DNA of 32,000 bases from Sedimentisphaera cyanobacteriorum (GCF_001997385.1 NZ_CP019633.1:1380001-1412000); one strand, 5' to 3'. Numbered from the stretch's first letter, positions 5,677 to 29,445 are shown. Notes: generated by a model from the letters alone, not told the origin. A program made the numbers and translations.

Positions 5677-5681
5677 CGATT

Positions 5682-5765: not shown

Positions 5766-5781
5766 ATAATAAGAAAGAGAG

Positions 5782-5931: not shown

Positions 5932-6330
5932 CTTTAACCCTTTAATCCCAGCCATATTTAACTGCGATACTGAGAATAATTGTATAAACGCCGCTGGTCA
6001 TTTCAAAACCATTATACGAAATTAAATAACCATTCTGCGTAGAAAGAGATTAAAAGAGGGCAAGAAGCCGTTTGTGCGGCTAATTATTCACAAAAATTTC
6101 TCAGCGAAAGCAAATATTGTGCGACAATATTTCCCGGCAAAGCTTTTTAAAGCCGCATCTATCCGCTTGTTTCCCGCCTTCGGCGGACAGGCTTTCTGCC
6201 TTTGGCGGACTCCACGTGCGGCTCTGATTGCCCTTAGTATTAGGCAGCAATTCCACGACACGAAATATTTAAGCCGAGCCACGAATGAATCCGCCGCAGG
6301 CGGAGAGGTATAGGAGGGGAGATTTTTTAA

Positions 6331-6360
6331 CCGCTAATTTTCACTAATTTCCGCTAATAT
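6331..6360. repeat. Three tandem 10-bp units CCGCTAATTT / TCACTAATTT / CCGCTAATAT
   Basis: Read directly from the sequence. The 10-bp period is exact, and CTAAT is invariant in each unit. Confidence 0.8.
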
Positions 6361-6365
6361 GGTTT

Positions 6366-6400
6366 CTTCGTGGTGAATAATTCATTTTAAAACCACGAAG
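6366..6400. repeat. Perfect 9-bp inverted repeat CTTCGTGGT-N17-ACCACGAAG, part of a CCACGAA/TTCGTGG motif cluster
   Basis: Read directly from the sequence. The same 9-mer CTTCGTGGT recurs at 6520-6528. The heptamer or near-copies also occur at 6253-6264, 6279-6285 and 6503-6509. Confidence 0.8.
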
Positions 6401-6569
6401 GATATTTGTAAGATATTTTATAGAAGGGCTTTACATTCTTAAAAACAACCTGTGCTATCCGTGTCATCTGTGCATAATAATTTCACCAAAAAAAATATCC
6501 CCTTCGTGTGTTTCTAGGGCTTCGTGGTAAAAAAAACACAATTTTTTCTTAGATAATACCAAATTCTTC

Positions 6570-6598
6570 TTGAATATATGATTAAATATTGGTATATA
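6570..6598 (+). promoter_or_regulatory. Candidate sigma70-like promoter for the PEP-CTERM protein gene
   Basis: TTGAAT-N17-TATATA in an AT-rich tract about 70 nt upstream of ATG 6671. Confidence 0.3.
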
Positions 6599-6670
6599 TA
6601 ATAATAGAATTAGTATAGTTGGTATAACACCCTGAAAAATTTGGGAGATTTGTGTTGAAAGGTAGTTTAA

Positions 6671-7564
6671 ATGAAAGAAAAAAGTTGTTCATTCAAGTTC
6701 TTGGCAGCATCAGCAATGGTTATGTTTTTATTGCCCCAAGCCTTCGCATCATTTTCATTTTCCGGCAGCAATGGAATATGGTCAGGCTCAAACTATCAAT
6801 CAGTCAGTAGCTGGAGCCAAGTGTCTAGTGACGATAAGATCGCTGTTGGCTATACTGACCAAGGCTCTCTTGAGGGCGATGGAGGCAGTGTTGAAAGTTT
6901 AAATCGAATTTACGTTGGTCACAATCATTACGGCGAACTCTCTCTCTCCGGAGAAGGTACAACATTGAATGTTAATGGCTCGGAAAATCTGTCGGTTGGA
7001 ATGGGAGCTTCTGGGCTGATAGAAGTTCTTTCTGGAGCAGCTCTTAACACAAATCATAACCTTGTAATTGGAGATGGGGATTTAGGCGAAATGACTATTA
7101 ATAATGGAACCGTAAATTGCACTAACCACTTAATTTTTAATTACAAAGATAACTCAGATAACAGCAGCATTACAATTACTAACGGTGGTTCTTTGACTTC
7201 AAACACATACTTGTACACAGTTAATAACACCGCAAACCTTACTATAGAGGATGGCTCGGCTTCCTTTGAGAATATATATGCCGCTGGTTCATCTGTAACG
7301 AATGTCAACATCGGACTTGAAGGCAGTATTTATCTTGCCGGCGGAGGCGACAGCATCGATTCTTTTATTGAAGCTATCAGTAAAGATTCTAATGCTTCAT
7401 TTGAACTGAAGCTATGGAACGATGGTGCTTATGTAAGTTACAGCTCATTACAGGAAAATACTGACTACTTTGTCTCAGATGGTATGATTACTGTCCCCGA
7501 GCCGTGCAGTATAATGCTTTTCTCTTTGGGCGGGATGCTTTTAAGACGTAAGACAGCAGTCTGA
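6671..7564 (+). CDS. Secreted repeat protein with PEP-CTERM sorting tail (T5SS/PEP-CTERM-associated repeat type)
   Basis: Signal peptide is MKEKSCSFKFLAASAMVMFLLPQAFA. Internal beta-strand repeats resemble autotransporter-associated repeats (...LSLSGEGTTLNVNGSENLSVGMGASGLIEVLSGAALNTNHNLVIGDGDLGEMTINNGTV...). The C-terminus VPEPCSIMLFSLGGMLLRRKTAV has the PEP motif, a TM helix and a basic tail. Confidence 0.85.
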   Translation: MKEKSCSFKFLAASAMVMFLLPQAFASFSFSGSNGIWSGSNYQSVSSWSQVSSDDKIAVGYTDQGSLEGDGGSVESLNRIYVGHNHYGELSLSGEGTTLNVNGSENLSVGMGASGLIEVLSGAALNTNHNLVIGDGDLGEMTINNGTVNCTNHLIFNYKDNSDNSSITITNGGSLTSNTYLYTVNNTANLTIEDGSASFENIYAAGSSVTNVNIGLEGSIYLAGGGDSIDSFIEAISKDSNASFELKLWNDGAYVSYSSLQENTDYFVSDGMITVPEPCSIMLFSLGGMLLRRKTAV

Positions 7565-7892
7565 TTTATTTGCTCGGCGCATAATTTTTATCGCTGATTA
7601 AGCAGATTTATCCAGCAGGCAGCTTGCGAAGCCGGCAAGTGAGAGTGTAAAGCTGTGAAAGGAAATAACTTACAATAATTTTTCCGCAGTTTTGGCGTGC
7701 ATTGCTGTTTAAGGTTAATTATTTACATCTAAAACTGCAAATACACAAAAAATCTTACATTTTTTCTACTATTCCTTCCTTTTAACCTTGTATTTTTTTC
7801 TAATCATTATATCTTATATTAATGGAGAAATGTGAATAAGTTTTATAAACCGCGAAAAATAAATTAATCAAAAACTAAAAAATTTGAATTTT

Positions 7893-7915
7893 TTCTTGCA
7901 TTTCTTCTTGCATTT
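7893..7915 (+). repeat. Tandem 11-mer TTCTTGCATTT x2 (12-bp period) overlapping the -35 of the downstream promoter
   Basis: Read directly: TTCTTGCATTT c TTCTTGCATTT. Confidence 0.75.
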
Positions 7916-7936
7916 TAAAGTAATAACACTTAGAAT
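7908..7936 (+). promoter_or_regulatory. Candidate sigma70-like promoter for the dockerin protein gene
   Basis: TTGCAT-N17-TAGAAT. The -10 ends 6 nt before the ORF-track ATG at 7943, which argues for the downstream ATG 7979 as the real start. Confidence 0.4.
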
Positions 7937-7978
7937 AATGCTATGGAAAACAAGGAACTCAATAAAAAGGGGCACAAG

Positions 7979-8572
7979 ATGAAAACTAAGGCGTTATTTA
8001 TGAATGTTACAGCATTTTCCCTTCTCTGTATAATGCTGCCCTGTGCAACACAAGCCGCATCTCCGGAATGGGAAAATCCGCAGGGATATGATTACTCAAT
8101 GTGCATCTACGCACAGGTTTTCGATCAGCAGGGCAATCAAATTGCCTTTGCACCTGATTCGGCAATTTCCGCATGGACATCCGAGGGCACAATTTCAGGC
8201 TGCTCTGCCGAGCCTGTGGATTCGCCCGCGGGAACTATTTTCGCTTTTCAGGCTTTTTATGACCTTTCAATCGCAGAGGATTTTTCACTGAAGGTTTATG
8301 ACAGGGAGCTTGATGAGGTGTTTGAAACGGAATACATTTTCGATTTTGAGACCGGCTCCACTCTCGGGGACGTAGTAAACCCTGTTGTGGTTGTTGCGAA
8401 AGCAAACTATCTCCCCTGCGATTTCAATGAAGACGGTTTTGTAGATTTGCTGGATCTTGCTTTATTGCAGTCTGAATGGCTTTCTGATACCAGCCTTGAA
8501 AGCGACTTGAATTCTGACGGCAAGGTTGATATTAAAGATTTTCAGCTTTTCTATAAAGAATTTGAAAATTAA
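7979..8572 (+). CDS. Small secreted protein with a C-terminal type-I-like dockerin (two Ca-binding loops)
   Basis: ATG 7979 is preceded by AAGGGG 7 nt upstream. Signal peptide is MKTKALFMNVTAFSLLCIMLPCATQA. The C-terminus has two EF-hand-like repeats, DFNEDGFVDLLD and DLNSDGKVDIKD, separated by about 22 aa. The ~140-aa N-terminal domain is unassigned. ORF-track start is 7943. Confidence 0.8.
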   Translation: MKTKALFMNVTAFSLLCIMLPCATQAASPEWENPQGYDYSMCIYAQVFDQQGNQIAFAPDSAISAWTSEGTISGCSAEPVDSPAGTIFAFQAFYDLSIAEDFSLKVYDRELDEVFETEYIFDFETGSTLGDVVNPVVVVAKANYLPCDFNEDGFVDLLDLALLQSEWLSDTSLESDLNSDGKVDIKDFQLFYKEFEN

Positions 8573-9805: not shown

Positions 9806-11065
9806 TTAGAAGTAGTACCCAATGTTTACATTGAACCTTGTGTGCCAGCCCTTGTCGTCTGCGGCAGCAGAAAGACCGTCTGTCCAGCTGCTGTCGAGCC
9901 ATGGCTGATTCTTACCCATTGCAAGGTCAACCATAGTGAAGAACCTTCCAACGCTGAAAGACATACCGAGAACGTTCTGGTGTGAATCGTTGTAGTCTGA
10001 TTTGTCTTTGAGCAGTACTGAGTAGTCGTTGTAAACGGTAACAGTTTTGATCGGGCCGAAATTAACGTCGAGATCTCTGCTGATACCAGCTACAAGCATT
10101 GTGCCGTCTGCTGCTACCTGATACGGGAAGTCGTATGCACCCATTACTACGTAATCATCGCTTACGCCTGCAGGGTTTTCTGCATCGTAGCCGTACCTTA
10201 TAGCTTCAAGCTTGGCGTTCCACTTGCCGTAGTAGCCGTCGAGGTGAGTACCGATTGCGTAGTGGTCGCCGTCGCCGCCGGTTTCATTGTTATGCAGCTG
10301 AGAATACTGAAGAGAGAGTCCGAGCTCGGTCTTGTCGCCATCGCCGTGGTCAAGTGTCTGAGCAAGTCTCATATTAACCTGATTGCGTTCAGTATTAGCG
10401 CCCTGAGGCGTATCGTTTTCAACTACATCATAAGAATACCTTGATGAGTCGCGGCTGTCGCCGTAGTAGCTTCCTTCGTCGCCGTAGTAGTAGGCAAGCT
10501 GCAGATTGGTATTGCCCATATCCTGAACCCACTTAACACCGAGGTCGTAGTCGTCTTCCAGACCTACGTAGTATGGAAGCTGGAAGAACCAGTTGTGAGA
10601 TGCGTAAGGCAGGATACCGAAGGGTACCTGATGTACACCCACCTGGATCTGTTTGGTGTCATCAAACTTATACCCCAGCCATCCGTGATGGAGGAAGTGA
10701 TAGAAGTGTCCTGGGTCAGCGTGATGTGTTCTGTAATACCTGTACTGGAATGAACCGATAATCGGGTCAGTTCCCTGCAAGTTTACATTAACGCCGATTG
10801 TGTCCAGTGCGAGCTCTCCGCCGTGCTCGTAATCCTTTGCCCAGCTCTTGTAAGCGTAATTCGCTCTTACGAATCCGCCAATCTTGAGAGGGCCTGCAGT
10901 GATAGGGAGCACCTGCTTATCAAACGAGGCGTTGGCATCGTCTGTCTCCCCGAATTTGATGCCGCTGAAAGCAGAATCAATATCCTGCTCGCTTGCAGCA
11001 AATACGCCCGCAGCCAGAAACGCAACCATCAGTGCGGCCGCTAAAGGAGTCTTTAGGGTCTTCAT
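9806..11065 (-). CDS. Outer-membrane beta-barrel (porin-like) protein of unassigned family, embedded in the opuA operon
   Basis: ATG 11065 is preceded by GGAAAGGA. Signal peptide is MKTLKTPLAAALMVAFLAAGVFA. Composition is Y/G/D/N-rich with alternating hydrophobic residues. The C-terminus ...FNVNIGYYF has the terminal aromatic OMP signature. ORF-track TTG start is 11092. Confidence 0.7.
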   Translation of the reverse strand: MKTLKTPLAAALMVAFLAAGVFAASEQDIDSAFSGIKFGETDDANASFDKQVLPITAGPLKIGGFVRANYAYKSWAKDYEHGGELALDTIGVNVNLQGTDPIIGSFQYRYYRTHHADPGHFYHFLHHGWLGYKFDDTKQIQVGVHQVPFGILPYASHNWFFQLPYYVGLEDDYDLGVKWVQDMGNTNLQLAYYYGDEGSYYGDSRDSSRYSYDVVENDTPQGANTERNQVNMRLAQTLDHGDGDKTELGLSLQYSQLHNNETGGDGDHYAIGTHLDGYYGKWNAKLEAIRYGYDAENPAGVSDDYVVMGAYDFPYQVAADGTMLVAGISRDLDVNFGPIKTVTVYNDYSVLLKDKSDYNDSHQNVLGMSFSVGRFFTMVDLAMGKNQPWLDSSWTDGLSAAADDKGWHTRFNVNIGYYF

Positions 11066-11111
11066 CAATGAATCCTTTCCAATTTGTAACAATATTTCAC
11101 TTTTAAATTAA

Positions 11112-14658: not shown

Positions 14659-17600
14659 TCAATCCTCATCCTCCCATACCGAACGGAGCTTGTAAGCGTC
14701 CAGATAATTAATGTGAGCGGTGCCGCTTATTGAATACAGCTGAACGCCTGTACTGTCTGCACGAGTTGGATAAACACGCGTGCTGAAGACTGCCCTGTCG
14801 TTAATAAATACATCCAAAATGCTGTGGTCTACAAATATATGGAATTTCACAGGCTCCCCGGCAATATCGAACCCGGCACTTAACAGATTAGTCTCAGAGC
14901 CGGTTTTATCCAGCGTTGAATTTCTTTTGTCTATATTAACAGTACCTGCAAGCCGGTCGTAATAGATTAAAGTTTCTTCTGCCCCGTCAGGGCTTCTGAG
15001 AACTTTCACGCCGACAATAGCCGCATCCTGAGGCTCGATTTCTGCCTTTATTTCCACCATTTTCCCGTAAACTGGTCGAAGGTTTTCTTCTCCAATGCCC
15101 GTAGCCAATTCTTTGTCTTCCAGCTCAAAATGATACTCCCTGAGGTTTGCAATCTCAGGTGCCGGCTTCTGACGCAATGTACCGTCAGAAGCTGCATATA
15201 TCTTTCGCGGCAGGGAGAATGTGTGCCGCCAGCCTGCATTTTCAATAAGTGCGGCGCATCTCTGCTCGGGCACAATCCCCATTATTCTGGGCAAGCCGTC
15301 AGGTGCTGTATATGCAGCGGGAGCAAGCATCCAATTGAATATATCCAGCTGTCTTGGCTCGGGGTGGTCAGGCGTAAAATGTTCATTTTCCCATTTACCG
15401 ATCCAATAAAGCTCTCTGGCAGGTCCGTCGGACTCCATTGTAGTAATCAGGAGTATATGCTTTCCGTTTCCAATGGGCAGAAAAACGGGCATCTCCCAAT
15501 AGTGGCCTGAGGAGCTTATATTCCCGGTATGCAGCGGATGAAGAAACTGCCAATCCCTCAGATTTGCAGATTTGTAGAGAAGCGCTGCACCGCCTGCACC
15601 ATCTACGCCTGAACCTATAACCATATACCATAAATCGTTTCCCCTCCAAACATAAGGATCGCGATAATCCATATATCCGGGCGGGACATCACTCAGCACA
15701 TGCCCCTGTTTCTGCCATGTTTTCCAGCCGTCAACACTCGTTGCCAAGGCCACATGCGCCTTGCCTTCAATTGCGGTATAAACGAGGGTTGGGATGCCGT
15801 TGTCATAAACCGCATTGCCGGACCAGCACCCTCCCGAATCAATCCCGGGCTCCGGTGCTATGGCATTCGGCATATGATCCCAGTCAGCCAAATCGGAACT
15901 CTTAAGATGCCCCCAATGTATATGATCCCAGAAGCTCCCCGAGGGGTTTTTCTGATGGAATACATGCCACTCCTGGCGGTCGGGGTCGTAAACTAAGCCT
16001 GTAGGTTCATTTGTCCAGTTCGCTGATGTGCCTGCATGATATCCCGGTCGGGCATTAGAATCAGTTATGAACCTTTCTTTAGATGGTATAAGATCCGGTT
16101 TATTATCCAAGGGCAAAGCCTTAGCATATTCTGCCCTTATTTGTTTGCGAGAGAGGGCTTTGTTATACACCCGAAGCTCATCCATAATCCCGTTTACAGC
16201 GCCGTGGGCATAAGGTCCAGACCATTGAGTATGAATATCCCTGCCTATCATCAGGTCGGTTTCGGTATCGGGAGTTAGTGGTCTTCCAGCTGGAGAAGCA
16301 GCAGTGCCCACAAGGCGGCCGTTAAGATAAAGCTTTATGCCCTGGTCTTTATGGAAGGTTGCCGCGATATGATTCCATTTGTATTTCGGCAGCTCCATCG
16401 TTGCCCAGCAAGTATGCCAGTTTCCATCAACGGAAACTGAAAGATTCCACCTGCCGAATTTTGTAATCCCAAAGAAATAGCCTGCTGAGGGTGCTGTATA
16501 ATGATTCACAAAGGCAGCATCATCTACAGGGTAAGACTCCAGCGCAGCCCAGCATTCTACAGTAAGCTCTTCTGAAGGAAGCTTATCCTGCGGTATAGAT
16601 TTTGTTATCCAATTTGTTCCTCCATCAAAACGAAGCGCCTTTCCGTATGCGCCGTCTTCCCATTCGGGGTCATAAAACGGGCTGTTTATGCCCAGCATCG
16701 CCCCTGATTCCATGTCGTTGGTCTGATAGCCCTGACCCTCTTCGAAGTCTAATACAACCTGGGCATCATTATACTCGGCAGCCTGCTTGTAAGGTGTGAT
16801 GTCAACCCCTTGAAGCCAAAACTCCGTGAAGCCGGTAAAGTCTGCAAAATCAACATAGCAGTCTGCGTTTTCATCGTGAACGGAAGGAAACTTGCAGGTT
16901 GGATTTACAGTTGAAAACCGCCAAGTTTTTCCGGACACCACTTCCTCCCCGAATACCTCATCAATTCTCCAGTAATACGTTCTTCCTGCCTCAAGTCCGC
17001 CGGGCAGATATGAAACACCCTCCTGCTCGGAACGGAAGGTTAAAGGAAACTCGGAGCCTAAATAAACTCTGTGCTCTTCAGCGCCGGGTGCAGGCGCCCA
17101 TTGCAGTGAGGGATTTATCCAAACTTCTTTCTTATAATCTGCTGGTGATGGTCTGGAAGCTGTGTTCTTATTTGGCAAATCACCTAAGAGCTGCTCATCT
17201 GTAAGCGCGACCTCGCTAAAGCGAAGCTCATCTATCAATCCTCTGAAAGTTCGTGAGCCGCCGGAAGTTTCTCGTCCAATAAACATAGACTCATCACTGC
17301 CTAAGTTCAAGCGGCTTCCGGTGTAAAACTGCTTCATATTCGTATCATAGCTTCCATCAGGATTGAGCACGCCAAAAATCAGCCGGCCTGAATCTTTGAT
17401 GTATCTTATCACAAAATAATGCCAGTTTCCGTCAGCATAGTTTCTGCTGTTCAGCGGGACAGACTGAATCCCGCCCGGAATCATATTGATATTGAAATTA
17501 AGAGCTCCATTGCCGTTTTCATTAAGAACTAAGCTGTAGCTGAAATCGCTGTCGGCCTGCAGAAACACCTGCATCGGCCCTGCCAGAGACTGTTCACCAT

Positions 17601-17952
17601 TTGTCCTGAAAAATCCCTCAACAGTGAAGGAACCGGAGAAGTCCAAAACATTTCCGTACTGTGAGGGCGGGAAGAAAAGGATTCCGTATCCTGACTGCGC
17701 GGAAGAATCGTATGAATAGCCGCCGCCGGAAAAGCCTTCGTTAAACATATCGGATGGAGGAGTCTGGTCGGAAGTGGTATAGCCCTCTGTCCCCATATAC
17801 CAGAGGTGGCTGCCGTTTCCGCTGGAATCATTAACCACGGGATTTCCGGAGAGAGGATCCATAGACCACAGACCGATTGTATCAGCGCAGCCTATGCCGC
17901 AGAAAAATTCAACACAAATCATCAAAAAAATTAAGCTCTTCAATCTTAGCAT
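14659..17952 (-). CDS. Secreted multidomain GH32 beta-fructofuranosidase/fructan hydrolase: signal peptide, shared LamG module, FN3-like, dockerin-like loop, second LamG, GH32 N- and C-domains
   Basis: GH32 motifs appear in canonical order. WTNEPTG corresponds to WMNDPNG, followed by FHQKNP...HWGH, then the RDP motif in DYRDPYVW and the EC-motif equivalent YWEMPVF. The C-terminal beta-sandwich reads ...FHIFVDHSILDVFINDRAVFSTRVYP. The N-terminal 390 aa parallel the whole neighbouring 413-codon protein. The second LamG has ...GIMDELRVYNKALS. RBS GAGGAAA lies 19 nt after the upstream gene. Confidence 0.92.
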   Translation of the reverse strand: MLRLKSLIFLMICVEFFCGIGCADTIGLWSMDPLSGNPVVNDSSGNGSHLWYMGTEGYTTSDQTPPSDMFNEGFSGGGYSYDSSAQSGYGILFFPPSQYGNVLDFSGSFTVEGFFRTNGEQSLAGPMQVFLQADSDFSYSLVLNENGNGALNFNINMIPGGIQSVPLNSRNYADGNWHYFVIRYIKDSGRLIFGVLNPDGSYDTNMKQFYTGSRLNLGSDESMFIGRETSGGSRTFRGLIDELRFSEVALTDEQLLGDLPNKNTASRPSPADYKKEVWINPSLQWAPAPGAEEHRVYLGSEFPLTFRSEQEGVSYLPGGLEAGRTYYWRIDEVFGEEVVSGKTWRFSTVNPTCKFPSVHDENADCYVDFADFTGFTEFWLQGVDITPYKQAAEYNDAQVVLDFEEGQGYQTNDMESGAMLGINSPFYDPEWEDGAYGKALRFDGGTNWITKSIPQDKLPSEELTVECWAALESYPVDDAAFVNHYTAPSAGYFFGITKFGRWNLSVSVDGNWHTCWATMELPKYKWNHIAATFHKDQGIKLYLNGRLVGTAASPAGRPLTPDTETDLMIGRDIHTQWSGPYAHGAVNGIMDELRVYNKALSRKQIRAEYAKALPLDNKPDLIPSKERFITDSNARPGYHAGTSANWTNEPTGLVYDPDRQEWHVFHQKNPSGSFWDHIHWGHLKSSDLADWDHMPNAIAPEPGIDSGGCWSGNAVYDNGIPTLVYTAIEGKAHVALATSVDGWKTWQKQGHVLSDVPPGYMDYRDPYVWRGNDLWYMVIGSGVDGAGGAALLYKSANLRDWQFLHPLHTGNISSSGHYWEMPVFLPIGNGKHILLITTMESDGPARELYWIGKWENEHFTPDHPEPRQLDIFNWMLAPAAYTAPDGLPRIMGIVPEQRCAALIENAGWRHTFSLPRKIYAASDGTLRQKPAPEIANLREYHFELEDKELATGIGEENLRPVYGKMVEIKAEIEPQDAAIVGVKVLRSPDGAEETLIYYDRLAGTVNIDKRNSTLDKTGSETNLLSAGFDIAGEPVKFHIFVDHSILDVFINDRAVFSTRVYPTRADSTGVQLYSISGTAHINYLDAYKLRSVWEDED

Positions 17953-17971
17953 AATGTTTCCTCAGCAATTC

Positions 17972-19189
17972 TCAAAAACAAGCATTTTCAGGTACAATTC
18001 CGCAATCCAGCCAAGCTGCAACAAAATGGGACAAATCATTGATGTCAACAATGCAGTCGTCATTGTAATCATGAACAGAAAACTCATCGCATGCGGGCTG
18101 CTGGGTGGTAAACGACCAAACCTCACCCTGAACAGCAGTTCCGTCCATCAATATTTCATCAACACGCCAGAGATACGTTGTACCCGGTTTTAATGTATTC
18201 GGAGAATATCCGGTCTGCTTCTGCTGGGTTTTGAATTTGGGAGGCTCTGTACGTCCGAAATATACGTTGTAAGCATAAACGCCGCTTCCCGAGTCCCACT
18301 GAAGCTCTATATCAAGACCAACCCCCTGCTCTCTGGGTGCTGGGTAAGGGTTTCTCTCTGCTTCTATTCTGCCCATAAGTTCGGAATTCGGGACAATCCC
18401 ATCGCTGATTCTGAGTTCATCAATCAGGCCGTTAAACTGCCTGCTTCCTCCATAGTTCTCACGCCCGATAAGCATATTAGCGCTGCCGCCTCTTTGAAGC
18501 TGAGAACCTTCTGAGAGCTGCACTTCTTTCTGCTCTGTTTGACCGTCAGCAGTCAAAACTGTCAAAGACATTTCATCGGACGGTTCGCTGAATCTGGCTG
18601 CGAAATAATACCAGCTGCCGTCGGCATAGTTCCTCGCATTTGCATCCACTGATTTTATTCCGTCGATTGTGGTATTTGCAGCAAACCTGAGCCATCCAGC
18701 CCCGCCTTCATTTATTGATATACTGTAGCTGTAGTCGTTCTCTGCCTGGAGGAGTATTTGCTGCACTCCGCCGGCGGACTGGTCTGCGTGAGTCTTGAAA
18801 AACCCTTCTACTGTAAAAGAGCCGTGGTAGTCAAATTCGTTTCCATACTGATCCTGCGGAAAAAACAGAACGCCTTCATCAAACTGTTCGCCGGCATCAA
18901 ATGAATTCCCGTGAGGTGAAAAACCATCGGAGAAGAGTGTTTGGGGCGGCTTAACAGAGCTGAAAGTAAAGCCGGCATTTCCGAAATACCAGAGATGATC
19001 GAATTCCACCACCCCTTCGCTAGGACCGCCTATTGTTCCCTGCCCAAGCCCGAAAGCGCTGTCGTAAACCGCAGGGTTTGCAAGATGAGTCCAGTCCATA
19101 GACCAGCGCACGGTTGTCTGGGCAAAACAGGCTGAAGCCGCTAAAATTATTACGGCATTGAAAACTGTTTTCTCTAACAAGGGTTTCAA
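17972..19189 (-). CDS. Secreted LamG-module protein with FN3-like domain and C-terminal Cys-framed dockerin-like tag
   Basis: The likely start is TTG 19189, preceded by GGAGA with 6-nt spacing, giving signal peptide (M)KPLLEKTVFNAVIILAASACFAQ. LamG motifs are GVLFFPQDQYGNEFDYHGSFTVEGFFKT, NYADGSWYYFAARF and NMLIGRENYGGSRQFNGLIDELRIS. The FN3-like domain has TYLWRVDEI...VWSFTT. The tail is ACDEFSVHDYNDDCIVDINDLSHFVAAWLDCGIVPENACF. ORF-track start is 19213. Confidence 0.88.
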   Translation of the reverse strand: MKPLLEKTVFNAVIILAASACFAQTTVRWSMDWTHLANPAVYDSAFGLGQGTIGGPSEGVVEFDHLWYFGNAGFTFSSVKPPQTLFSDGFSPHGNSFDAGEQFDEGVLFFPQDQYGNEFDYHGSFTVEGFFKTHADQSAGGVQQILLQAENDYSYSISINEGGAGWLRFAANTTIDGIKSVDANARNYADGSWYYFAARFSEPSDEMSLTVLTADGQTEQKEVQLSEGSQLQRGGSANMLIGRENYGGSRQFNGLIDELRISDGIVPNSELMGRIEAERNPYPAPREQGVGLDIELQWDSGSGVYAYNVYFGRTEPPKFKTQQKQTGYSPNTLKPGTTYLWRVDEILMDGTAVQGEVWSFTTQQPACDEFSVHDYNDDCIVDINDLSHFVAAWLDCGIVPENACF

Positions 19190-19231
19190 GAAATATCTCC
19201 CTTCGAATTGCAATTCAGTTTTATCTTACAA

Positions 19232-19251
19232 TCCGTATTAGCTTATACGGA
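19232..19251. repeat. Near-perfect 20-bp palindrome TCCGTATTAGCTTATACGGA upstream of the LamG-413/GH32 gene pair (candidate operator)
   Basis: TCCGTAT-tAGCTt-ATACGGA has 9 of 10 positions symmetric. It lies 43 nt upstream of the TTG start, adjacent to a TATATA tract. Confidence 0.5.
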
Positions 19252-19362
19252 TATATAATTCTCTGCGACCGCAGCAGCACCGTATCTGTAAATCAATCTT
19301 ACCATTACGCAAGTGAAGAGCTTTTAAAAATAAGCTTCCCGATTTTTTAGATGCGGTTGAAT

Positions 19363-19401
19363 CTGCTGAAAAAACAGCAGGGGGAAAGCCCCCCCCCGCT
19401 G
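19363..19401 (-). terminator. Rho-independent terminator after the 736-codon LamG gene
   Basis: Minus-strand RNA reads CAGCGGGGGG...CCCCCUGCUG (about 10 bp, GC-rich, contains a G9 run) followed by UUUUUU. Confidence 0.75.
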
Positions 19402-19415
19402 TTTGAATGATATTT

Positions 19416-21605
19416 CTATGGACACGCTTCAGATGGCACGAGATTGCATTTGAGCCAATTTGAAGACATTATTGCAAGGTCGTTTAAGTCGATATAGCAG
19501 TTTCCATCAGCATCGCCCGGCAATGGCGGGTCGCATTGAGGAATCACAGTGCTGAAGCTCCAAACTTTCCCCTCAAGGGTGTTAGACATACTGTCAACCT
19601 GATCAACTCTCCAGTAGTATGTTTTGGAGAATTCCAGCTCGCCCGGGTCATAATTTGTTGAGCTCTGATTGCCCTGGAATGTGAGGTTATTAGGGTCAGT
19701 GCCCCAATACACATCATGGCTTACCGCATCTCTTCCGGCATTCCAGCTCAGCTCTGCATCTATATCAACACCCTCAGCTCCGTTTGCCGGATAGGGGTTG
19801 TATGCCCACGGAGACATCCCGCCAACTTCTGCCGGCGAGAGTTTCTGGTCGTAGATGCTGAATTCATCGAGCTTGCCGACAAAATTCAAGGTATTAGACC
19901 AGATATTCTGGTACGTTGAGGCCTTTACCTCAGAGCTTGCATCATTCAAATCAAACTGCCCTGCCGCTAATTCTGAGCCGTTTCTATAGAGGACGCACTG
20001 ATTAGTCCACCCGTCATAGGTTGCTGTAATCATCTGCCAAGCACCGGGAGTGAAATTTTCGCCTGATTCAACATCTGTACGATTGCCGTACATCGTAATC
20101 CCGCTCCAAGGGAAAGAGGCGATATAACGCAGCGAACCGAACATATTTGGGTCAGCAGAAGGGTCTTCTGTATTTTCGCTGCTGGTGAACATCTGATCGC
20201 CCATTCCGGCAATTATAGTTTCTTCCTCTAAAGGCTGATCGATATAAACAAAGATATTCATCGTCCAGGAATCCTCGCCTGCCAAAGGCAGATTATCAGG
20301 GCTCTGATTCACTACAGAACCTCCACCGTTAAACTCAAGGCAGTTTCCTTCAAAGCCTGTAGTCCAGGTTGGATTCGACCAGCCGTCAAAGCTGCCGTCA
20401 TTTCCGTTTCCGGAAGTGTCCTGAACAGTCTGGCCTGAGGTTTCATCCATTTTCCATTCGAGCACCTTTTGCGGGGCAGGACGCGTGTTAAAACTCCAGA
20501 CCGGGCCATTTACCTCAACATTGCCTGAGGCATCTAACCCATCAACCTTCCAGTAGTAGGTCTTGTTTGCCTCAAGAGATGTGAGCGCATCATAAAAACT
20601 CTCGGAAACATTGCCAAGCTTTGTCATACTTGCCTGCGTTTCTCCAAGATAAACATCATAGGAAGCAATCACCTCATCATCACCCCACCATTCAAGATAG
20701 GCATCTTGTGCGACAACATTCTGCTGACCATCCTGAGGATGAATAACGCTTACGCTAACCGGAACAGCACCCATAAGCTGAGTATCAGATACAATTCCGG
20801 AGCTGAAACGCAGCTCATCTATAAAACCGTTAAAATTCCTGCCGCCTGTAAAGTTTTCCCTGCCGATAAGCATATTCCCTGCGCCTTCATGAAGGAGCTC
20901 AGAGCCGCCCGGAAGTGCCTGCGTGGCTGAATATACCGAGCCGTCCTCTTTCATTACTGTCAAAGAAAAACGGTCGCTGCGGTCGTCAAAACGGGCTGCA
21001 AAGTAGTGCCAGCTCCCGTCTGCAAAATTTGCAGTACCCGGGCCGCCTGCATATACTGTGGTGATCTGGCCGGTTCCAGAGGCTATCGTGTTTACAGCAA
21101 ACATTAAAGCTCCTTCACCGCCTTCGTTGAGTGTAATATTATAGCTGAATCCTACTTCATCCTGTATCAGAATCTGCTGAAATCCGTTTTGAGACTGGTC
21201 GCCGTCAGTTTTGAAAAATCCTTCAATTGTGAAAGAATCAGCGAAATCGAATTCATTTCCGTAGCCGTCTTGAGGGAAGAACAAAACGCCGTCCTGACCC
21301 TGCATATAACCAGCGTAGAACGATTCTTCACCGCCTGAAAATCCTTCATTGAACATACTTGCCGGCGGGGTATCATAGCCTGAAACATATCCGTTTTCAG
21401 GAAAAAAATAAAGGTGGTCTTCGGAAGCATCAACCGCCAAACCGCCAGAGAGAACCCCCTGCCCTGCTCCGACAGCAGAATCATTTACCACAGGATTAAC
21501 TGTCCCTGTATAATCCATACTCCAATGACTGATTGGAGTTGCAGCGGAAACTAAAATGCTTGCCGCCAATAAAAATAGCAATGAAACTGTTTTTTTAATT
21601 ATCAT
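19416..21605 (-). CDS. Secreted protein: shared LamG module, FN3-like, second LamG, FN3-like, C-terminal Cys-framed dockerin-like tag
   Basis: ATG 21605 is preceded by GAGG with 7-nt spacing. Signal peptide is MIIKKTVSLLFLLAASILVSA. Motifs are GVLFFPQDGYGNEFDFADSFTIEGFFKT, NFADGSWHYFAARF and NMLIGRENFTGGRNFNGFIDELRFS. The second LamG has ...FVGKLDEFSIYDQKLS. There are two YYW[KR]VD FN3-like modules. The tail is QCDPPLPGDADGNCYIDLNDLAIMSSNWLKCNLVPSEACP. ORF-track start is 21626. Confidence 0.9.
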   Translation of the reverse strand: MIIKKTVSLLFLLAASILVSAATPISHWSMDYTGTVNPVVNDSAVGAGQGVLSGGLAVDASEDHLYFFPENGYVSGYDTPPASMFNEGFSGGEESFYAGYMQGQDGVLFFPQDGYGNEFDFADSFTIEGFFKTDGDQSQNGFQQILIQDEVGFSYNITLNEGGEGALMFAVNTIASGTGQITTVYAGGPGTANFADGSWHYFAARFDDRSDRFSLTVMKEDGSVYSATQALPGGSELLHEGAGNMLIGRENFTGGRNFNGFIDELRFSSGIVSDTQLMGAVPVSVSVIHPQDGQQNVVAQDAYLEWWGDDEVIASYDVYLGETQASMTKLGNVSESFYDALTSLEANKTYYWKVDGLDASGNVEVNGPVWSFNTRPAPQKVLEWKMDETSGQTVQDTSGNGNDGSFDGWSNPTWTTGFEGNCLEFNGGGSVVNQSPDNLPLAGEDSWTMNIFVYIDQPLEEETIIAGMGDQMFTSSENTEDPSADPNMFGSLRYIASFPWSGITMYGNRTDVESGENFTPGAWQMITATYDGWTNQCVLYRNGSELAAGQFDLNDASSEVKASTYQNIWSNTLNFVGKLDEFSIYDQKLSPAEVGGMSPWAYNPYPANGAEGVDIDAELSWNAGRDAVSHDVYWGTDPNNLTFQGNQSSTNYDPGELEFSKTYYWRVDQVDSMSNTLEGKVWSFSTVIPQCDPPLPGDADGNCYIDLNDLAIMSSNWLKCNLVPSEACP

Positions 21606-21627
21606 ATAAAAACCTCGAACCTGCACA

Positions 21628-21666
21628 TAAAAAAAACGAACACAGACGGTGCAGACATCTGTGTTC
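21628..21666 (-). terminator. Rho-independent terminator after the LamG/PEP-CTERM gene
   Basis: Minus-strand RNA reads GAACACAGA-N11-UCUGUGUUC (perfect 9 bp) followed by GUUUUUUUUAU. Its U-run ends only about 22 nt before the next gene's ATG. Confidence 0.8.
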
Positions 21667-21690
21667 GCCTGCTTATCAATCTTTACAATA

Positions 21691-22647
21691 TTAAGTTTTA
21701 CGTTTTCTGGTAAAAGCCAAGCTCCCGATTCCTAAAAGAAGTGCAGTAACAGGCTCCGGTACACCAATAAGCTCAGGATTGCTCATGGCGCTGCCGGAAA
21801 GCCTTACTTCATCAATCAAACCGGCAAAGCGTTCAACTGGTGTTTCACCTTCTCTGCGGCCTATAAGAATATTGTTATTGCCTCCGTTGATAATCATATC
21901 ATTAGTGAGAGTCTGGTTCTTGAAATAGGCGCTGCCGTCTTCGCTGTAAACCATAAGGCTCATTTCATTAGATGCGTTATTGTATCTTGCAGCAGCATAA
22001 TGCCACATCCCGTCCTGAAAACCTGCTGCCCTGTCTTCTGTTGTCATAACAATGTTAACAAAACCAGAGCCGTCATACCCCCAAAACTCAAGGCCTCCCG
22101 CACCGGAATTTCCGGTATTTAGCTGGAGATGGCTCGCAGCGTGTCCTTCCTTTGCCCAGAGCAGAGTCTGAGCTCCAGAGGTATCTCCTATCTGCTTGAA
22201 AAACAGCTCGGCAGTAAAGCTTCCGGAGCTATACTCATTTCCGTATTGATCGGCAGCATAGAACATATTTCCGCCCAATTCTCGAACTGCATTAAAATTA
22301 AATGACTGAGCAGATGAAATACCGTTCAGCATACCGGAGGGAGCAGCATCACTGCTGAAGGCATTCTCTCCGCCTCCCAAATCAGGATCCTCCATCTCTC
22401 CCCACACATATAAAGGGTCATGTGCAGGATTTGGGTCTCCTGAATTTCCTGCAATGCTTCCCTGTCCACTACTGTCTGCGCTGTCAGCTATGCCGTGGGT
22501 ATTAGCATTCCCGTCCACGTAAAGGCCTTCCTGCCACGCATCCATTTTCCAGTGATGGTAAACAGCAGAAGCAGGGCTTGCAGCAGAAATAATGAAAACA
22601 GCCATTAATAACATCAGCAAGCAATTGTTCATTTTTCGAATTCTCAT
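21691..22647 (-). CDS. Secreted LamG-module protein with PEP-CTERM sorting tail
   Basis: ATG 22647 is preceded by GGAGAG. Signal peptide is MRIRKMNNCLLMLLMAVFIISAASPASA. It carries a divergent copy of the shared module (HHWKMD, QYGNEYSSGSFTAELFFKQ, FQDGMWHYAAARY, NILIGRRE...FAGLIDEVRLS). The C-terminus is VPEPVTALLLGIGSLAFTRKRKT. ORF-track start is 22662. Confidence 0.88.
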   Translation of the reverse strand: MRIRKMNNCLLMLLMAVFIISAASPASAVYHHWKMDAWQEGLYVDGNANTHGIADSADSSGQGSIAGNSGDPNPAHDPLYVWGEMEDPDLGGGENAFSSDAAPSGMLNGISSAQSFNFNAVRELGGNMFYAADQYGNEYSSGSFTAELFFKQIGDTSGAQTLLWAKEGHAASHLQLNTGNSGAGGLEFWGYDGSGFVNIVMTTEDRAAGFQDGMWHYAAARYNNASNEMSLMVYSEDGSAYFKNQTLTNDMIINGGNNNILIGRREGETPVERFAGLIDEVRLSGSAMSNPELIGVPEPVTALLLGIGSLAFTRKRKT

Positions 22648-22710
22648 TTTCTTGCTCTCCAAATTAAACTACATTTTTTCTGAGCCCATTGCCCATTATT
22701 ATTCATTTTT

Positions 22711-23598
22711 TTATCTTGGCCAAACAAGCCTGAACGCCTCTTCTCTAACTTCAGAGGGCGAACCGTTCCTCGATATTTTTTCGCCAAAGCTCATTGTTTC
22801 AGTATGGCCATCCAGAAAGACCACATTCCCCTCGCCCCTGTTTTTTTCCTCTCCGAAAACGTTATGGAAAGTTCCGAAATAATTAACAGGCCTTGAGCGG
22901 AGTATATACAGCGAATTATCATCTAAGCCGTAATCGCTGACGCCTGGGATAGTCCATGCGTTCTCATCTGCAAATCCCACAATATCAGCCGGCTTGTCAA
23001 CTCTCAGCATCTTAATAGATCTGCCGCTGGCTTCTAAGCTGTCCGGATGAGAAGCGGGAGGCGGTACAGATGTAACCCAAGGATTCCATTTATTCGATTC
23101 TACACCGAGCCAATAGTTCATACTGTAGCTGTATTGCGGTTCGATAGGGATTGCCTGCTGATGGCCTGGGTGGTGATCTGAACCGTAAGTTTCTGCAAAA
23201 GAAGGGAAGGAAGGACATAAATGCGCACCCTCATTTTCAAGGTAAGGCCAAAGCCCCCCGTCCGGAGCTGCCAAACTGTTGTGCCAAACGCATTGAGGAG
23301 GACAGGCCGGGCCGGATTCGTAAGAACCGTCAGGCTGGAGATACTGGCCTTTGCTTATTTTGCTCAAATTATCCTGAGAATAGAGCCAGTTATATATATA
23401 GGGGAAATAACCGTCATTACTGCTTGTATACATTTGAATTGCCAAGCCATACTGCCTGAGATTAGACTTGCATACAATTATCCTTGCGCTCTCACGCGCC
23501 CTGCCCAGAGCGGGCATAAGAACTGCCATCAGCAGCGCTATGATTGAAATGACAACGAGCAGTTCAATTAATGTAAATCCTTTTTTATAATGGGTCAT
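22711..23598 (-). CDS. Prepilin-type N-terminal cleavage/methylation protein of the DUF1559 (pseudopilin-like, H-X9-DG-type C-terminus) family
   Basis: The N-terminus MTHYKKG|[24 protein letters not shown] has the GFxxxE motif with Glu at +5, followed by ...[15 protein letters not shown]. The C-terminus ...[17 protein letters not shown] is typical of this family. Confidence 0.9.
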
Positions 23599-23618: not shown

Positions 23619-23681
23619 ATACTAAGCTTACTAAAAATAAATTGTAAAAAACAGCTTATCTTTTGAAGCCTTGCAAGTCAA
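23619..23681 (-). promoter_or_regulatory. Candidate promoter region for the pseudopilin/LamG locus (two alternative hexamer pairs)
   Basis: The minus strand has TTTACA-N18-TAGTAT (23619-23648) and TTGACT-N17-TAAGCT (23653-23681). Neither matches consensus exactly. Confidence 0.3.
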
Positions 23682-27910: not shown

Positions 27911-29445
27911 TAGTCGTTCCTGAAAAATCAATGATTTTGGGGAAACTAAAAAAATATATCAGGCTAATCGAGTCTTTAATTTGCTTTTCATTGCCAAATT
28001 TCTGTAAAATTCAATAATTTTAAGCATAAAAATATAGGCAAAAGTAAACTTCTTTAGAAGTTTACGCATATTGTACCCAAAAGCGCTGCCGAGGGCGTTC
28101 ATTTTGTCCCCTTCTACACCTTTCAAGAAGTTTCTTCCCAACCTGTTGTCTTCTTTGAGGTGGCCTATCGTTGGTTCTATGCTCGATCTTCTCTTAATCC
28201 ACCTCTTGATACTTCGTTTCTTTTTTCGCCAGCCCTTTTCTACAATTTCAACATTTCCAATATCTTCGCAGCCATGTTTCTTGTATCCTCCATCAACATA
28301 AACATCTCCAAGCTTTTCTCTCCCGATTAAATTCATTGTCTGCTTCAGATTAGCCCGAAGAGTATGGCCATCATAAGGGTTTCCTTCAAAGCCCAACGCT
28401 CCTACGATAAAATTATTCTTGGCAGTAGTTACAATTCCAACCTTATTTCCAAACTCATATTTCTTGTGGCTTTTGCCTTTCCCAATGCAGCAGACGTGAG
28501 GTTCGTGAATACTGTAGAGCTTATTTTTGCTTTTCTTTGTCTGGGCTAAAAGCTTCTTAGCGGCTTGAAGCAATGTATCAAAAATTATTCTTAACTGCTC
28601 ATTGCCTGCTATATTCCGCTCGACCTCTTTCGTAATTCGCCGCAGGTAGTTCCTTAATTTCTTCACTTCTTTTTTAGCTCTTTTGAACTGTTTTGCACGT
28701 CGATACCTGCCCTGCATTACATACGCCCTTTTTCCAACCCTTTCGTAGCTTTGGCGAAGTTGGAGTTTTGAGGCTTTTGCAAGATCTACAAGCTTAATGC
28801 GCAGTTTGTGGCAGAGTTTTGCGTCGGTCGGATAAGTGATGTTCTTCTGCTGAACGGTTGTATCTGCAACGAGCTTGTTGAAATCGTTCTTTTTGATAAC
28901 CTTAAGCTTCAAGCCGGCTTTGATAGTTTCTTCGAGCAGCTCTTCAAGACCATCAGATTTTACCTTATTACGCCACTTAGTCATACTGGTTGGATCAATA
29001 GGAGGCTCGTACTGGAAGTATCTTTCGCCGCAGAAATACTGCCAGTAAGGATTCTCAACCCAGCCGGCAACGATTGCTTCATCGCTGAGATTGAAAGTGT
29101 ACTTGAGATACTGAAGGCCGACCATCAGGCGAATCGGCTTGGCCGGCCTGCCTGAATCAGGACTGTATAAACTGCCAAACTTCTCTTCAAAGCGAGACCA
29201 GTTGACAACCTCTGAGAGTTGGACTAAAGAGTGATCAGGATTTACAAGAGGTTTTAATGGCTGCTGAAAGAGTAAGCCTGCTTTATTGTTTTTTGCCTTC
29301 ATTATTTTGTCCCAATATTGCAATGTTTTGATAGATGTAAGATAAACACTTGCAATATTATACCATATCTCGAAAGCTTTTCAATCATATAAACCATTAT
29401 CAGAAAAGAATTTAAGGAAATTTTAAACTTTTTCAGGGGCGACTA
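27911..29445 (-). mobile_element. Intact IS5-family insertion sequence (~1.5 kb)
   Basis: Imperfect 17-bp terminal inverted repeats: TAGTCGTTCCTGAAAAA (27911-27927) and TTTTTCAGGGGCGACTA (29429-29445), 15/17 complementary. They are flanked by TATA at 27907-27910 and 29446-29449, a candidate 4-bp target duplication. The flanks are alternating A/T, so the ends are ambiguous by about 3 bp. It contains a single transposase ORF. Confidence 0.8.
27959..29302 (-). CDS. IS5-family DDE transposase
   Basis: The N-terminal region is typical of IS5/IS1182-type transposases (...SGRPAKPIRLMVGLQYLKYTFNLSDEAIV...ENPYWQYFCG). DDE candidates are VADTTVQ, VYVDGGY and SIEPTIGHLK. The C-terminal part is RNFLKGVEGDKMNALGSAFGYNMRKLL. 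ATG 29302 is preferred over ORF-track TTG 29323. Confidence 0.88.
   Translation of the reverse strand: MKAKNNKAGLLFQQPLKPLVNPDHSLVQLSEVVNWSRFEEKFGSLYSPDSGRPAKPIRLMVGLQYLKYTFNLSDEAIVAGWVENPYWQYFCGERYFQYEPPIDPTSMTKWRNKVKSDGLEELLEETIKAGLKLKVIKKNDFNKLVADTTVQQKNITYPTDAKLCHKLRIKLVDLAKASKLQLRQSYERVGKRAYVMQGRYRRAKQFKRAKKEVKKLRNYLRRITKEVERNIAGNEQLRIIFDTLLQAAKKLLAQTKKSKNKLYSIHEPHVCCIGKGKSHKKYEFGNKVGIVTTAKNNFIVGALGFEGNPYDGHTLRANLKQTMNLIGREKLGDVYVDGGYKKHGCEDIGNVEIVEKGWRKKKRSIKRWIKRRSSIEPTIGHLKEDNRLGRNFLKGVEGDKMNALGSAFGYNMRKLLKKFTFAYIFMLKIIEFYRNLAMKSKLKTRLA

Follow-up and report, generated by a model that had tools for sequence, protein, structure and literature searches.

What role does a gene for a pilin-like protein play at the head of a cluster that ends in a glycoside hydrolase? 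The question is raised by a five-gene locus (positions 14659–23598) in a stretch of 32,000 nt of the Sedimentisphaera cyanobacteriorum chromosome (Phycisphaerae, Planctomycetota), referred to below as the window. A preliminary description, made from the sequence of the window, proposed that a pseudopilin, four proteins sharing a laminin G-type (LamG) module and, within the last of these, an enzyme of glycoside hydrolase family 32 (GH32) constitute a dedicated surface machine for the capture and degradation of fructans. The analysis reported here partly supports this proposal: the locus is consistent with a fructan utilisation locus, a known kind of system, with an undescribed accessory architecture. 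The five genes, all read from the minus strand, are as follows.

22711–23598, minus strand: gene 1, prepilin-type protein with a class III signal peptide (295 amino acids)
21691–22662, minus strand: gene 2, shared LamG module (residues ~35–301) between a signal peptide and a PEP-CTERM signal (323 amino acids)
19416–21626, minus strand: gene 3, signal peptide and modules (736 amino acids)
17972–19213, minus strand: gene 4, signal peptide and modules (413 amino acids)
14659–17952, minus strand: gene 5, signal peptide, modules and GH32 (1097 amino acids)

The five co-oriented open reading frames (ORFs) lie where the preliminary description had placed them, and the proposed order, with the pseudopilin first and GH32 last, agrees with profile searches against Pfam and NCBIfam. 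The product of gene 5 is 100% identical to an S. cyanobacteriorum protein (P0001). Where translation of genes 2 and 4 starts is uncertain: their database records list products of 304 and 405 amino acids. The cleavage sites of the signal peptides of genes 2–5 were judged by eye only.

The locus is conserved beyond this species. S. salicampi possesses the identical five genes, with the same order and flanks. Anaerohalosphaera lusitana retains the five genes and their order in a different genomic neighbourhood, with a GH32 orthologue that is 72% identical. Several genes are added there: those for a PfkB-type kinase and a major facilitator superfamily (MFS) sugar transporter lie upstream in divergent orientation, a gene for a GntR/LacI-type regulator separates genes 3 and 4, and a second secreted GH32 is encoded downstream. 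The four module-bearing paralogues have 1:1 orthologues in all three genomes, with identities of 66–74% (gene 4 type) compared with 34–51% between paralogues. Because each paralogue has its own orthologue in three genomes, the quadruplication of the module predates these genera and has been maintained. The pseudopilin–LamG–GH32 linkage, whose loss in related genomes would have refuted the proposal according to the preliminary description, is thus kept in S. salicampi and A. lusitana, and it is also found in Verrucomicrobiota.

The module common to the products of genes 2–5, which had been recognised in four signal-peptide proteins, is borne out both by alignment and by Laminin_G_3 profiles. 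The four copies are 32–51% identical over ~250 residues, with the motifs singled out in the preliminary description invariant, a likeness far beyond chance. Laminin_G_3 matches all four proteins (43.5–133 bits, cut-off 27.6), with two stretches in genes 3 and 5 and one in gene 4 (E-values of 4.7e-11 for gene 2 and 2.8e-12 for gene 4). The module is a complete LamG_3 domain, with a W-x-M-D strand a few residues past the signal peptide and an insertion ahead of the jelly-roll core. An AlphaFold2 model of the gene 4 copy (pLDDT 75.6) adopts a LamG jelly-roll sandwich preceded by ~40 disordered residues. Its best fold matches in the PDB are generic, comprising the Hcn domain of botulinum neurotoxin, laminin LG domains and neurexin LNS domains, and the module profile retrieves only pikachurin LG domains from the PDB (E = 0.15). 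Searches of the PDB, Pfam and known folds gave no specific match beyond generic LamG that would assign the module to a characterised family with an unrelated role.

An exhaustive hidden Markov model search of 1.84 billion representative proteins returned ~60 representatives that match the module end to end; weaker matches cover the generic LamG core only. Among 61 members scanned, GH32 is the sole glycoside hydrolase fused to the module (9–11 members), the other possibly catalytic Pfam match is one Beta_helix, and Dockerin_1 and PEP-CTERM occur in a few. A scan of 185,579 species genomes with one 10-residue module pattern, which samples close relatives only, recovered 16 loci, nearly all from metagenome-assembled genomes (MAGs) of Verrucomicrobiota (subdivision 3/Limisphaerales); these loci were annotated by our own ORF calling and BLAST. 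Fifteen of the 16 carry GH32 genes, and the remaining one ends at a contig edge. The Verrucomicrobiota loci follow the order regulator (on the opposite strand), large module-bearing LamG protein, pseudopilin, MFS transporter, PfkB, a GH32 of ~700 amino acids and, as the last genes, one or two GH32s of 1160–2600 amino acids in which the module is C-terminal to the catalytic domain. Related loci carry 2–4 GH32 genes, and in one of them (L005) a neighbouring GH32 bears DUF4960 (56 bits), a domain of levan surface glycan-binding proteins (SGBPs). The contexts of three metagenomic relatives (P0087–P0089) are likewise GH32 loci with PfkB, MFS or regulator genes, and every judgeable locus recovered through the module (~20, mostly Verrucomicrobiota) is a GH32 locus. 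Since the judgeable loci found by the module alone hold GH32 genes, and no other glycoside hydrolase is fused to it in the members scanned, the shared module represents a GH32-locus-specific LamG family spanning two phyla of the Planctomycetota–Verrucomicrobiota (PVC) group. This family and a pseudopilin travel with GH32, MFS and PfkB genes.

Two of the recovered loci, L008 (CAZKMR010000037.1) and L012 (CAYTJG010000001.1), come from MAGs labelled Bifidobacterium/Bifidobacteriaceae. Both carry a Verrucomicrobiota-type locus, with a pseudopilin 70–75% identical to that of L003, and they are probably mis-binned contigs.

The catalytic part of gene 5 matches Glyco_hydro_32N (PF00251; 195.9 bits, cut-off 22.1) over profile positions 1–307 of 307 and Glyco_hydro_32C (PF08244; 96 bits, cut-off 21.9), and it aligns end to end with bacterial beta-fructofuranosidases (PDB entries 7vco, E = 1e-60, 6num, 3pig and 8i12). 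The predicted triad motifs are WTNEPTG, YRDPY and YWEMPVF, compared with WINDPNG, FRDPK and MLECPDF in 7vco. The nucleophile box, aligned with WINDPNG of 7vco, 6num and 3pig, has Glu where WMNDPNG usually has Asp. This Glu is kept in S. salicampi, A. lusitana, the 35%-identical enzyme of L005 and other module-bearing GH32s. In the endo-inulinase INU2 the catalytic nucleophile is also a Glu (Glu43 in YWMNEPNG; PMC5245892, PMC6042768). The variant therefore appears to be functional rather than a sign of decay, being conserved in orthologues and module-bearing GH32s and documented in INU2. An enzyme inactivated by the exchange of Asp for Glu was considered and rejected on the same evidence, the variant being conserved across proteins that are 35–81% identical and a documented nucleophile (PMC5245892). 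The motif is a mild pointer to an endo-inulinase-like, polymer-cleaving chemistry. A W[MT]NEP.G motif was also observed in P0004, P0099, P0120, P0121, P0128 and P0137, and among the proteins examined here it accompanies the shared LamG module; a bacterial GH32 clade thus carries the Glu nucleophile that the papers found discuss for endo-inulinases.

The product of gene 1 is of the prepilin type, as had been proposed from its leader KKG/FTLIELLVV (the slash marks the cleavage site). It matches the N_methyl models PF07963 (34.8 bits, cut-off 21.2) and TIGR02532 (31.1 bits, cut-off 16.3), with Gly-1, Phe+1 and Glu+5. DUF1559, also named SBP_bac_10 (PF07596), reaches 30.4 bits (cut-off 23.3), aligned only at profile positions 2–35 of 268. 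A GNVVFLDGH motif is present, but there is no His ten residues upstream of it. The NCBIfam matches at E ≤ 0.01 include no further pseudopilin model above its cut-off and no H-X9-DG model; the GspG equivalog TIGR01710 fails (34.5 bits, cut-off 88.85, N-terminal 57 residues only). There are at least 6868 homologues, of which the ~40% identical ones are named 'prepilin-type processing-associated H-X9-DG' by JGI. Gene 1 is probably a peripheral member of this huge H-X9-DG/DUF1559 family, the largest paralogous family in some planctomycete genomes; Planctopirus limnophila has 68 copies, of which two are essential (PMC10632474). In an AlphaFold2 model (pLDDT 84), solved pilins match the N-terminal helix only, and the globular domain (~230 residues) has no solved structural relative. 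The family alignment reveals residues outside the helix that are invariant (C43, H126, C128, E212, N213, H245 and D263) or at least 90% conserved (C103, H106 and H265), a pattern pointing to disulfides and perhaps to a site for a metal or ligand.

In each of the 15 loci with the relevant region on the contig, a pseudopilin is encoded (the window, L001, L002, L003, L005/L006, L008, L009, L011, L012, L014, L015, L018 and L020–L022). The first gene of L005 is N-terminally truncated and still aligns with the pilin helix. The Verrucomicrobiota pseudopilins form a tight orthologous group (45–75% identity) that travels with the locus.

The remaining parts of the five proteins were delineated as follows.

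23518–23589, minus strand: gene 1, prepilin leader with methylation motif, preceding a hydrophobic helix (PF07963, residues 4–27; TIGR02532, residues 5–27; motif read from the translation)
21697–21762, minus strand: gene 2, PEP-CTERM sorting signal, residues 301–322 (TIGR02595)
20766–21533, minus strand: gene 3, shared module (alignments of paralogues)
20463–20762, minus strand: gene 3, first FN3-like segment (FN3 profile)
19824–20303, minus strand: gene 3, second LamG_3 (Pfam)
19524–19823, minus strand: gene 3, second FN3-like segment (FN3 profile)
19422–19535, minus strand: gene 3, four-Cys single dockerin-type repeat (tag profile)
18368–19114, minus strand: gene 4, shared module (Laminin_G_3)
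18080–18379, minus strand: gene 4, FN3-like segment (FN3 profile)
17978–18091, minus strand: gene 4, four-Cys single dockerin-type repeat (tag profile)
17179–17877, minus strand: gene 5, shared module (Pfam)
16882–17181, minus strand: gene 5, FN3-like segment (FN3 profile)
16837–16875, minus strand: gene 5, degenerate dockerin-type loop
16138–16623, minus strand: gene 5, LamG_3 (Pfam)
15997–16017, minus strand: gene 5, GH32 nucleophile motif WTNEPTG (alignment with solved GH32s)
15163–16038, minus strand: gene 5, GH32 beta-propeller (Pfam)
14692–15096, minus strand: gene 5, GH32 C-terminal sandwich (Pfam)

The PEP-CTERM tail that the preliminary description had assigned to one of the LamG proteins is recovered at residues 301–322 of gene 2, VPEPVTALLLGIGSLAFTRKRKT, by a marginal TIGR02595 match above the cut-off (18.3 bits, cut-off 16, E = 0.003); PF07589 is present in the A. 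lusitana orthologue of gene 2 and in metagenomic relatives P0085–P0087. The FN3-like and dockerin-like C-terminal parts fared unevenly. A profile of 11 FN3-like segments retrieves FN3 domains from the PDB (6tpw, 6e-5; 3mpc, 8e-4; 1k85, 0.013), giving weak support, and in Pfam only sub-threshold matches are obtained (Pur_ac_phosph_N). The Cys-framed tag stands as a single dockerin-type repeat: the best matches to its profile are single repeats of type I dockerins (5nrm and 5nrk; E = 3e-5), and its four framing cysteines are conserved in orthologues. It does not match Pfam Dockerin_1 (PF00404) even at E ≤ 10 and has one loop per protein, so that a canonical dockerin is ruled out by Pfam as its identity. 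By its sequence the tag resembles one Ca-loop/helix repeat of a dockerin, two being canonical, without being a member of that family. The 'three different surface-attachment solutions' and the 'machine' of the preliminary description therefore go beyond what was found, the tag being unrecognised by Dockerin_1 and the window having no cohesin or exosortase gene.

A two-repeat Dockerin_1 (E = 5.8e-8; loops DFNEDGFVDLLDL and DLNSDGKVDIKDF) occurs elsewhere in the window, in an ORF of 209 amino acids at 7943–8572 (plus strand), which means that canonical dockerins coexist with the single-repeat Cys-framed tag in this genome. The stretch around ~6000–8000 has a GC content of 35–39%, compared with ~45–50% elsewhere, and lies close to a tRNA-Leu (5681–5766); it could be a genomic island. 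Two ORFs near the two-repeat dockerin (6671–7564 and 125–733) have no Pfam match.

Taken as a whole, we consider it moderately probable that the locus serves the utilisation of fructans (beta-fructofuranoside polymers) in a PVC-type arrangement built on a generic PVC cassette design. The LamG proteins (genes 2–5) would, judging by their signal peptides, be exported by Sec. Gene 5 would provide the catalytic subunit, with a Glu nucleophile as in endo-inulinases, and probably attacks the polymer outside the cytoplasmic membrane. Genes 2–4 would encode non-catalytic surface or envelope proteins with the same GH32-locus-specific module as the enzyme; this module is most likely fructan-binding, in the manner of a carbohydrate-binding module (CBM), in which case the three proteins would act as SGBPs. 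Anchoring may proceed through PEP-CTERM and an exosortase (gene 2) or through the Cys-framed single dockerin-type repeat (genes 3 and 4). The pseudopilin is predicted from its motif to be cut by a prepilin peptidase and, as its conserved linkage suggests, may be incorporated into a fibre resembling that of type II secretion or a type IV pilus, which would either export folded locus proteins or help to capture and retrieve the polymer. Fructose and fructo-oligosaccharides (FOS) would be imported by the MFS transporter and phosphorylated by PfkB, whose genes are in the locus in A. lusitana and Verrucomicrobiota and elsewhere in Sedimentisphaera.

Several observations weigh against this reading. 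The shared module has no sequence or fold likeness to the known fructan-binding modules CBM66, CBM38 and BT1761-type DUF4960; CBM66 or another fructan CBM, tried as its identity, gave no sequence match and is absent from the top 50 Foldseek hits. GH32 enzymes act on sucrose, FOS, inulin and levan, and which of these is the substrate is not readable from sequence; the 'substrate-defined hydrolase' of the preliminary description is accordingly too strong a term, the Glu motif being a pointer and not proof. The pseudopilins of the GH32 loci fall into three lineages (Sedimentisphaerales, Verrucomicrobiota and L005 types) that have only the N-terminal ~60 residues in common by BLAST. This speaks against the suggested fixed link of one DUF1559 lineage to GH32, and a single orthologous 'fructan pseudopilin' across phyla was rejected on the same grounds. 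Within the 32-kb window no gene was found for a fructan-linked transporter, kinase or regulator, for the core of a type II secretion system (including GspD, GspE and GspF), for an exosortase or for a cohesin. Predicted transcription signals also divide the locus.

23653–23681, minus strand: TTGACTTGC-N-AAGATAAGC, a promoter-like element that precedes gene 1 by 83 nt (regular-expression scan; consensus resemblance only)
21634–21670, minus strand: terminator-like hairpin between genes 2 and 3, a 15-bp stem followed by a U-run (dG = -21.1 kcal/mol, z = -2.4)
19372–19404, minus strand: terminator-like G/C hairpin and U-run between genes 3 and 4 (dG = -24.7 kcal/mol, z = -4.7; 0 of 200 shuffles fold as well)
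~19289–19317, minus strand: look-alike promoter-like element TTCACTTGC...AAGATTGAT upstream of gene 4 (consensus resemblance only)

Genes 1 and 2 are separated by 48 bp and genes 4 and 5 by 19 bp. Given the hairpins after genes 2 and 3, a single operon is less likely than attenuation or a division into two or three transcription units. The hairpin after gene 2 is partly conserved in S. salicampi and absent from A. lusitana, and the promoter-like element of gene 1 is kept at the equivalent site in S. salicampi (L001, position 4280). The intergenic regions of the locus have no operator motif in common beyond the promoter-like resemblance, and Rfam detects no riboswitch or other RNA in the locus.

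A further qualification comes from a control sample of five close (~40% identical) paralogues of gene 1 on long contigs. One, a paralogue pair (L024), lies among housekeeping genes with no LamG neighbour. The other four adjoin LamG genes and, two of their loci being orthologous, represent three independent cases (three of four independent). L026 (8001–16909) and L028 (8001–16897) encode a LacI-type regulator, a pseudopilin, a LamG protein of ~1040 amino acids with a dockerin-like end, a LamG–PEP-CTERM protein of ~280 amino acids, a metallophosphoesterase and a second phosphoesterase; in L026 the N-terminal module of this large second phosphoesterase is 37–38% identical to the PEP-CTERM LamG protein, a sharing that fits protein–protein assembly as well as it fits substrate binding. 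L029 (6638–15334) encodes a LacI-type regulator, a pseudopilin, a LamG protein of 1051 amino acids and a protein of 318 amino acids, followed by glycoside hydrolases. The cassette, in which a pseudopilin is combined with a LamG protein anchored by PEP-CTERM and with an enzyme bearing a paralogous N-terminal LamG module, is thus a generic design that serves other enzymes, of which the fructan locus is one instance. As paralogous pseudopilins head like clusters with metallophosphoesterases or other glycoside hydrolases, the claim of a dedicated fructan apparatus does not hold: the apparatus is fructan-dedicated only in this instance and not by design. In the searchable literature no description was found of the pseudopilin–LamG–GH32 linkage or of the generic cassette, which is probably an undescribed accessory architecture general in PVC bacteria.

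Two rival explanations concern the module and the enzyme. The module might instead mediate contacts between proteins, either marking cargo for the pseudopilin (as in the substrate selection of a type II secretion system) or assembling the enzyme and its accessories on the PEP-CTERM paralogue. We give this a minor yet appreciable chance. In its favour, the Phycisphaerae module immediately follows the signal peptide in each of the four proteins, irrespective of the parts behind it, pseudopilin lineage and LamG module family are both particular to each cassette, and a module is shared within L026, where a common polysaccharide ligand is less obvious; the missing likeness to known CBMs points the same way. 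In Verrucomicrobiota, however, the module sits C-terminal to GH32, often in very large proteins, which is a placement typical of CBMs, and LamG/ConA-like folds commonly bind glycans. On the side of the enzyme, the best relatives in the PDB and NCBIfam are of the sucrose-6-phosphate hydrolase and beta-fructofuranosidase types, and the product of gene 5 is named 'sucrose-6-phosphate hydrolase' in the database. The target might then be sucrose or other small beta-fructofuranosides, such as cyanobacterial compatible solutes of the hypersaline mat, with the LamG proteins otherwise employed, for example in adhesion. A signal peptide and ~620 non-catalytic residues would be needless for a disaccharide and are incompatible with a cytoplasmic phospho-sugar; with a Glu-nucleophile motif known from an endo-inulinase, and related loci that combine several GH32 genes with a levan SGBP domain, a small-sugar target appears unlikely.

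Two further explanations concern the pseudopilin. In a family as expanded as this one adjacency arises easily, and gene 1 could be a neighbour with no fructan role, the true unit being the LamG and GH32 genes. The three unrelated lineages in GH32 loci, the L024 pair among housekeeping genes and the terminator-like hairpin that parts genes 1 and 2 from genes 3–5 would all fit. An incidental neighbour would hardly be present in 15 of the 15 visible GH32/module loci in two phyla, despite rearranged order and different flanks, nor would it be expected to persist as an orthologous group in Verrucomicrobiota or to adjoin LamG genes in most of the independent generic paralogues sampled; we regard this explanation as quite improbable. 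It is very improbable, in our estimate, that the pseudopilin stays outside any fibre and acts as a periplasmic binding protein, anchored in the membrane, that passes fructose or FOS on to the MFS importer. In favour of this role, the pseudopilin gene directly precedes the MFS gene in every Verrucomicrobiota-type locus and is the divergent neighbour of PfkB and MFS in A. lusitana, the Pfam identifier of DUF1559 is SBP_bac_10, and the globular fold combines the lack of a solved relative with many invariant His, Cys, Glu and Asp residues. The Sedimentisphaera locus, however, has the pseudopilin without a transporter, and the N-terminal helix, with Glu+5, is that of a canonical, assembly-competent pilin. 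No use of binding proteins is known for MFS transporters, which also weighs against this explanation.

Returning to a fructan utilisation locus on a generic cassette, a wider proposal can be put forward, which is doubtful but has a real chance of being correct. The H-X9-DG/DUF1559 pseudopilins may be locus-specific subunits of a modular system akin to a polysaccharide utilisation locus (PUL). Each cassette, composed of a LacI/GntR-type regulator, its own pseudopilin, LamG adaptors (one of them PEP-CTERM-anchored) that have a module in common with the enzyme, and one or more enzymes, would programme a common fibre, resembling a type II secretion system or type IV pilus, so that the components for a given substrate are exported, displayed or retrieved. 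If this is true, the fructan locus would stand as the first example with a defined substrate; it would be the equivalent, in PVC bacteria, of the Sus paradigm of Bacteroidota and would give the 'fishing rod' hypothesis discussed below a basis in genes.

The locus is flanked by a glycine-betaine ABC transporter operon downstream and by genes for lipid A and lipopolysaccharide/exopolysaccharide glycosyltransferases, together with an insertion sequence (IS) transposase, upstream. Between the two OpuAC substrate-binding genes of the glycine-betaine operon lies an ORF of 428 amino acids with no Pfam match (9806–11092, minus strand), which has a counterpart in the same place in S. salicampi (425 amino acids, no Pfam match, L001 18220–19497). 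The IS-type transposase (DUF772 and DDE_Tnp_1; 27959–29323, minus strand) has its insertion site amid GT4 glycosyltransferase genes; different transposases are found beside the S. salicampi locus (Transposase_mut, L001 13519–14757; Y1_Tnp, L001 20727–21191). A hybrid histidine kinase of 1554 amino acids (779–5443, plus strand), with HAMP, several PAS, HisKA/HATPase and receiver domains, is encoded ~9 kb from the locus, to which no link was found.

The closest functional comparison is the levan/fructan PUL of Bacteroides thetaiotaomicron (BT1754–BT1765), which comprises a SusC/SusD pair, the SGBP BT1761, the surface endo-levanase BT1760, periplasmic GH32s, a fructokinase and a sensor-regulator. 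Similarly, the locus and its relatives form a regulated cluster that combines a predicted surface-exposed GH32 and non-catalytic binding proteins with, in the related loci, further GH32s, an importer and a fructokinase, and L005 carries the BT1761-type DUF4960/SGBP levan-binding domain. In contrast to the Bacteroides system, LamG-module proteins with predicted PEP-CTERM or dockerin-type anchors replace lipoproteins, and a pseudopilin gene is constant here. Neither the window ORFs searched against Pfam nor the Pfam annotations of L001–L007 revealed a SusC/SusD pair, L008–L023 being unscreened. The locus bears on the capture and import of polysaccharides by PVC bacteria in the absence of Sus-like systems.

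The individual components have known counterparts from which they also depart. With GspG/PulG and type IV pilins, gene 1 has in common a class III signal peptide with Gly-1, Phe+1 and Glu+5 and a long helix that superposes on FimA and gonococcal pilins; unlike theirs, its gene is part of a carbohydrate-utilisation cluster rather than a gsp or pil operon, and its globular domain is without a solved relative. The combination of a modular enzyme with non-catalytic binding proteins that carry a short Ca-loop/helix repeat recalls the cellulosomes of Clostridia. The tag differs from clostridial dockerins in having one repeat instead of two, Cys for the loop Gly, four framing cysteines and no Dockerin_1 match. 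The enzyme resembles INU2 of Aspergillus ficuum (PDB entry 3RWK, which is among the PDB matches of gene 5 with E ~1e-24) in the Glu for Asp exchange of W-x-N-E-P-x-G and in a non-Cys acid/base motif (EVP in INU2, EMP here), whereas its closest solved relatives are bacterial exo-type beta-fructofuranosidases with Asp (7vco, 6num and 3pig) and it has ~620 accessory residues. The shared module is a candidate new fructan-associated binding module.

For Planctomycetes, pilin-like proteins have been proposed to capture whole polysaccharides for periplasmic uptake, the 'fishing rod' of Boedeker et al. 2017 (reviewed in PMC12078418), and pilin-mediated capture was still described as a hypothesis in a 2025 review (PMC12078418). 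Neither genes nor a substrate specificity are specified in that hypothesis; in the present case, pilin-like genes are located within substrate-defined loci of Phycisphaerae and Verrucomicrobiota, where they are known by genetic linkage alone. The locus and its ~20 relatives, which include the cultured S. cyanobacteriorum, S. salicampi and A. lusitana, tie a pseudopilin to GH32 chemistry, to a LamG module family and to genes for sugar import and phosphorylation, and they provide the hugely expanded DUF1559/H-X9-DG pseudopilin family with its first substrate-defined, testable genetic context.

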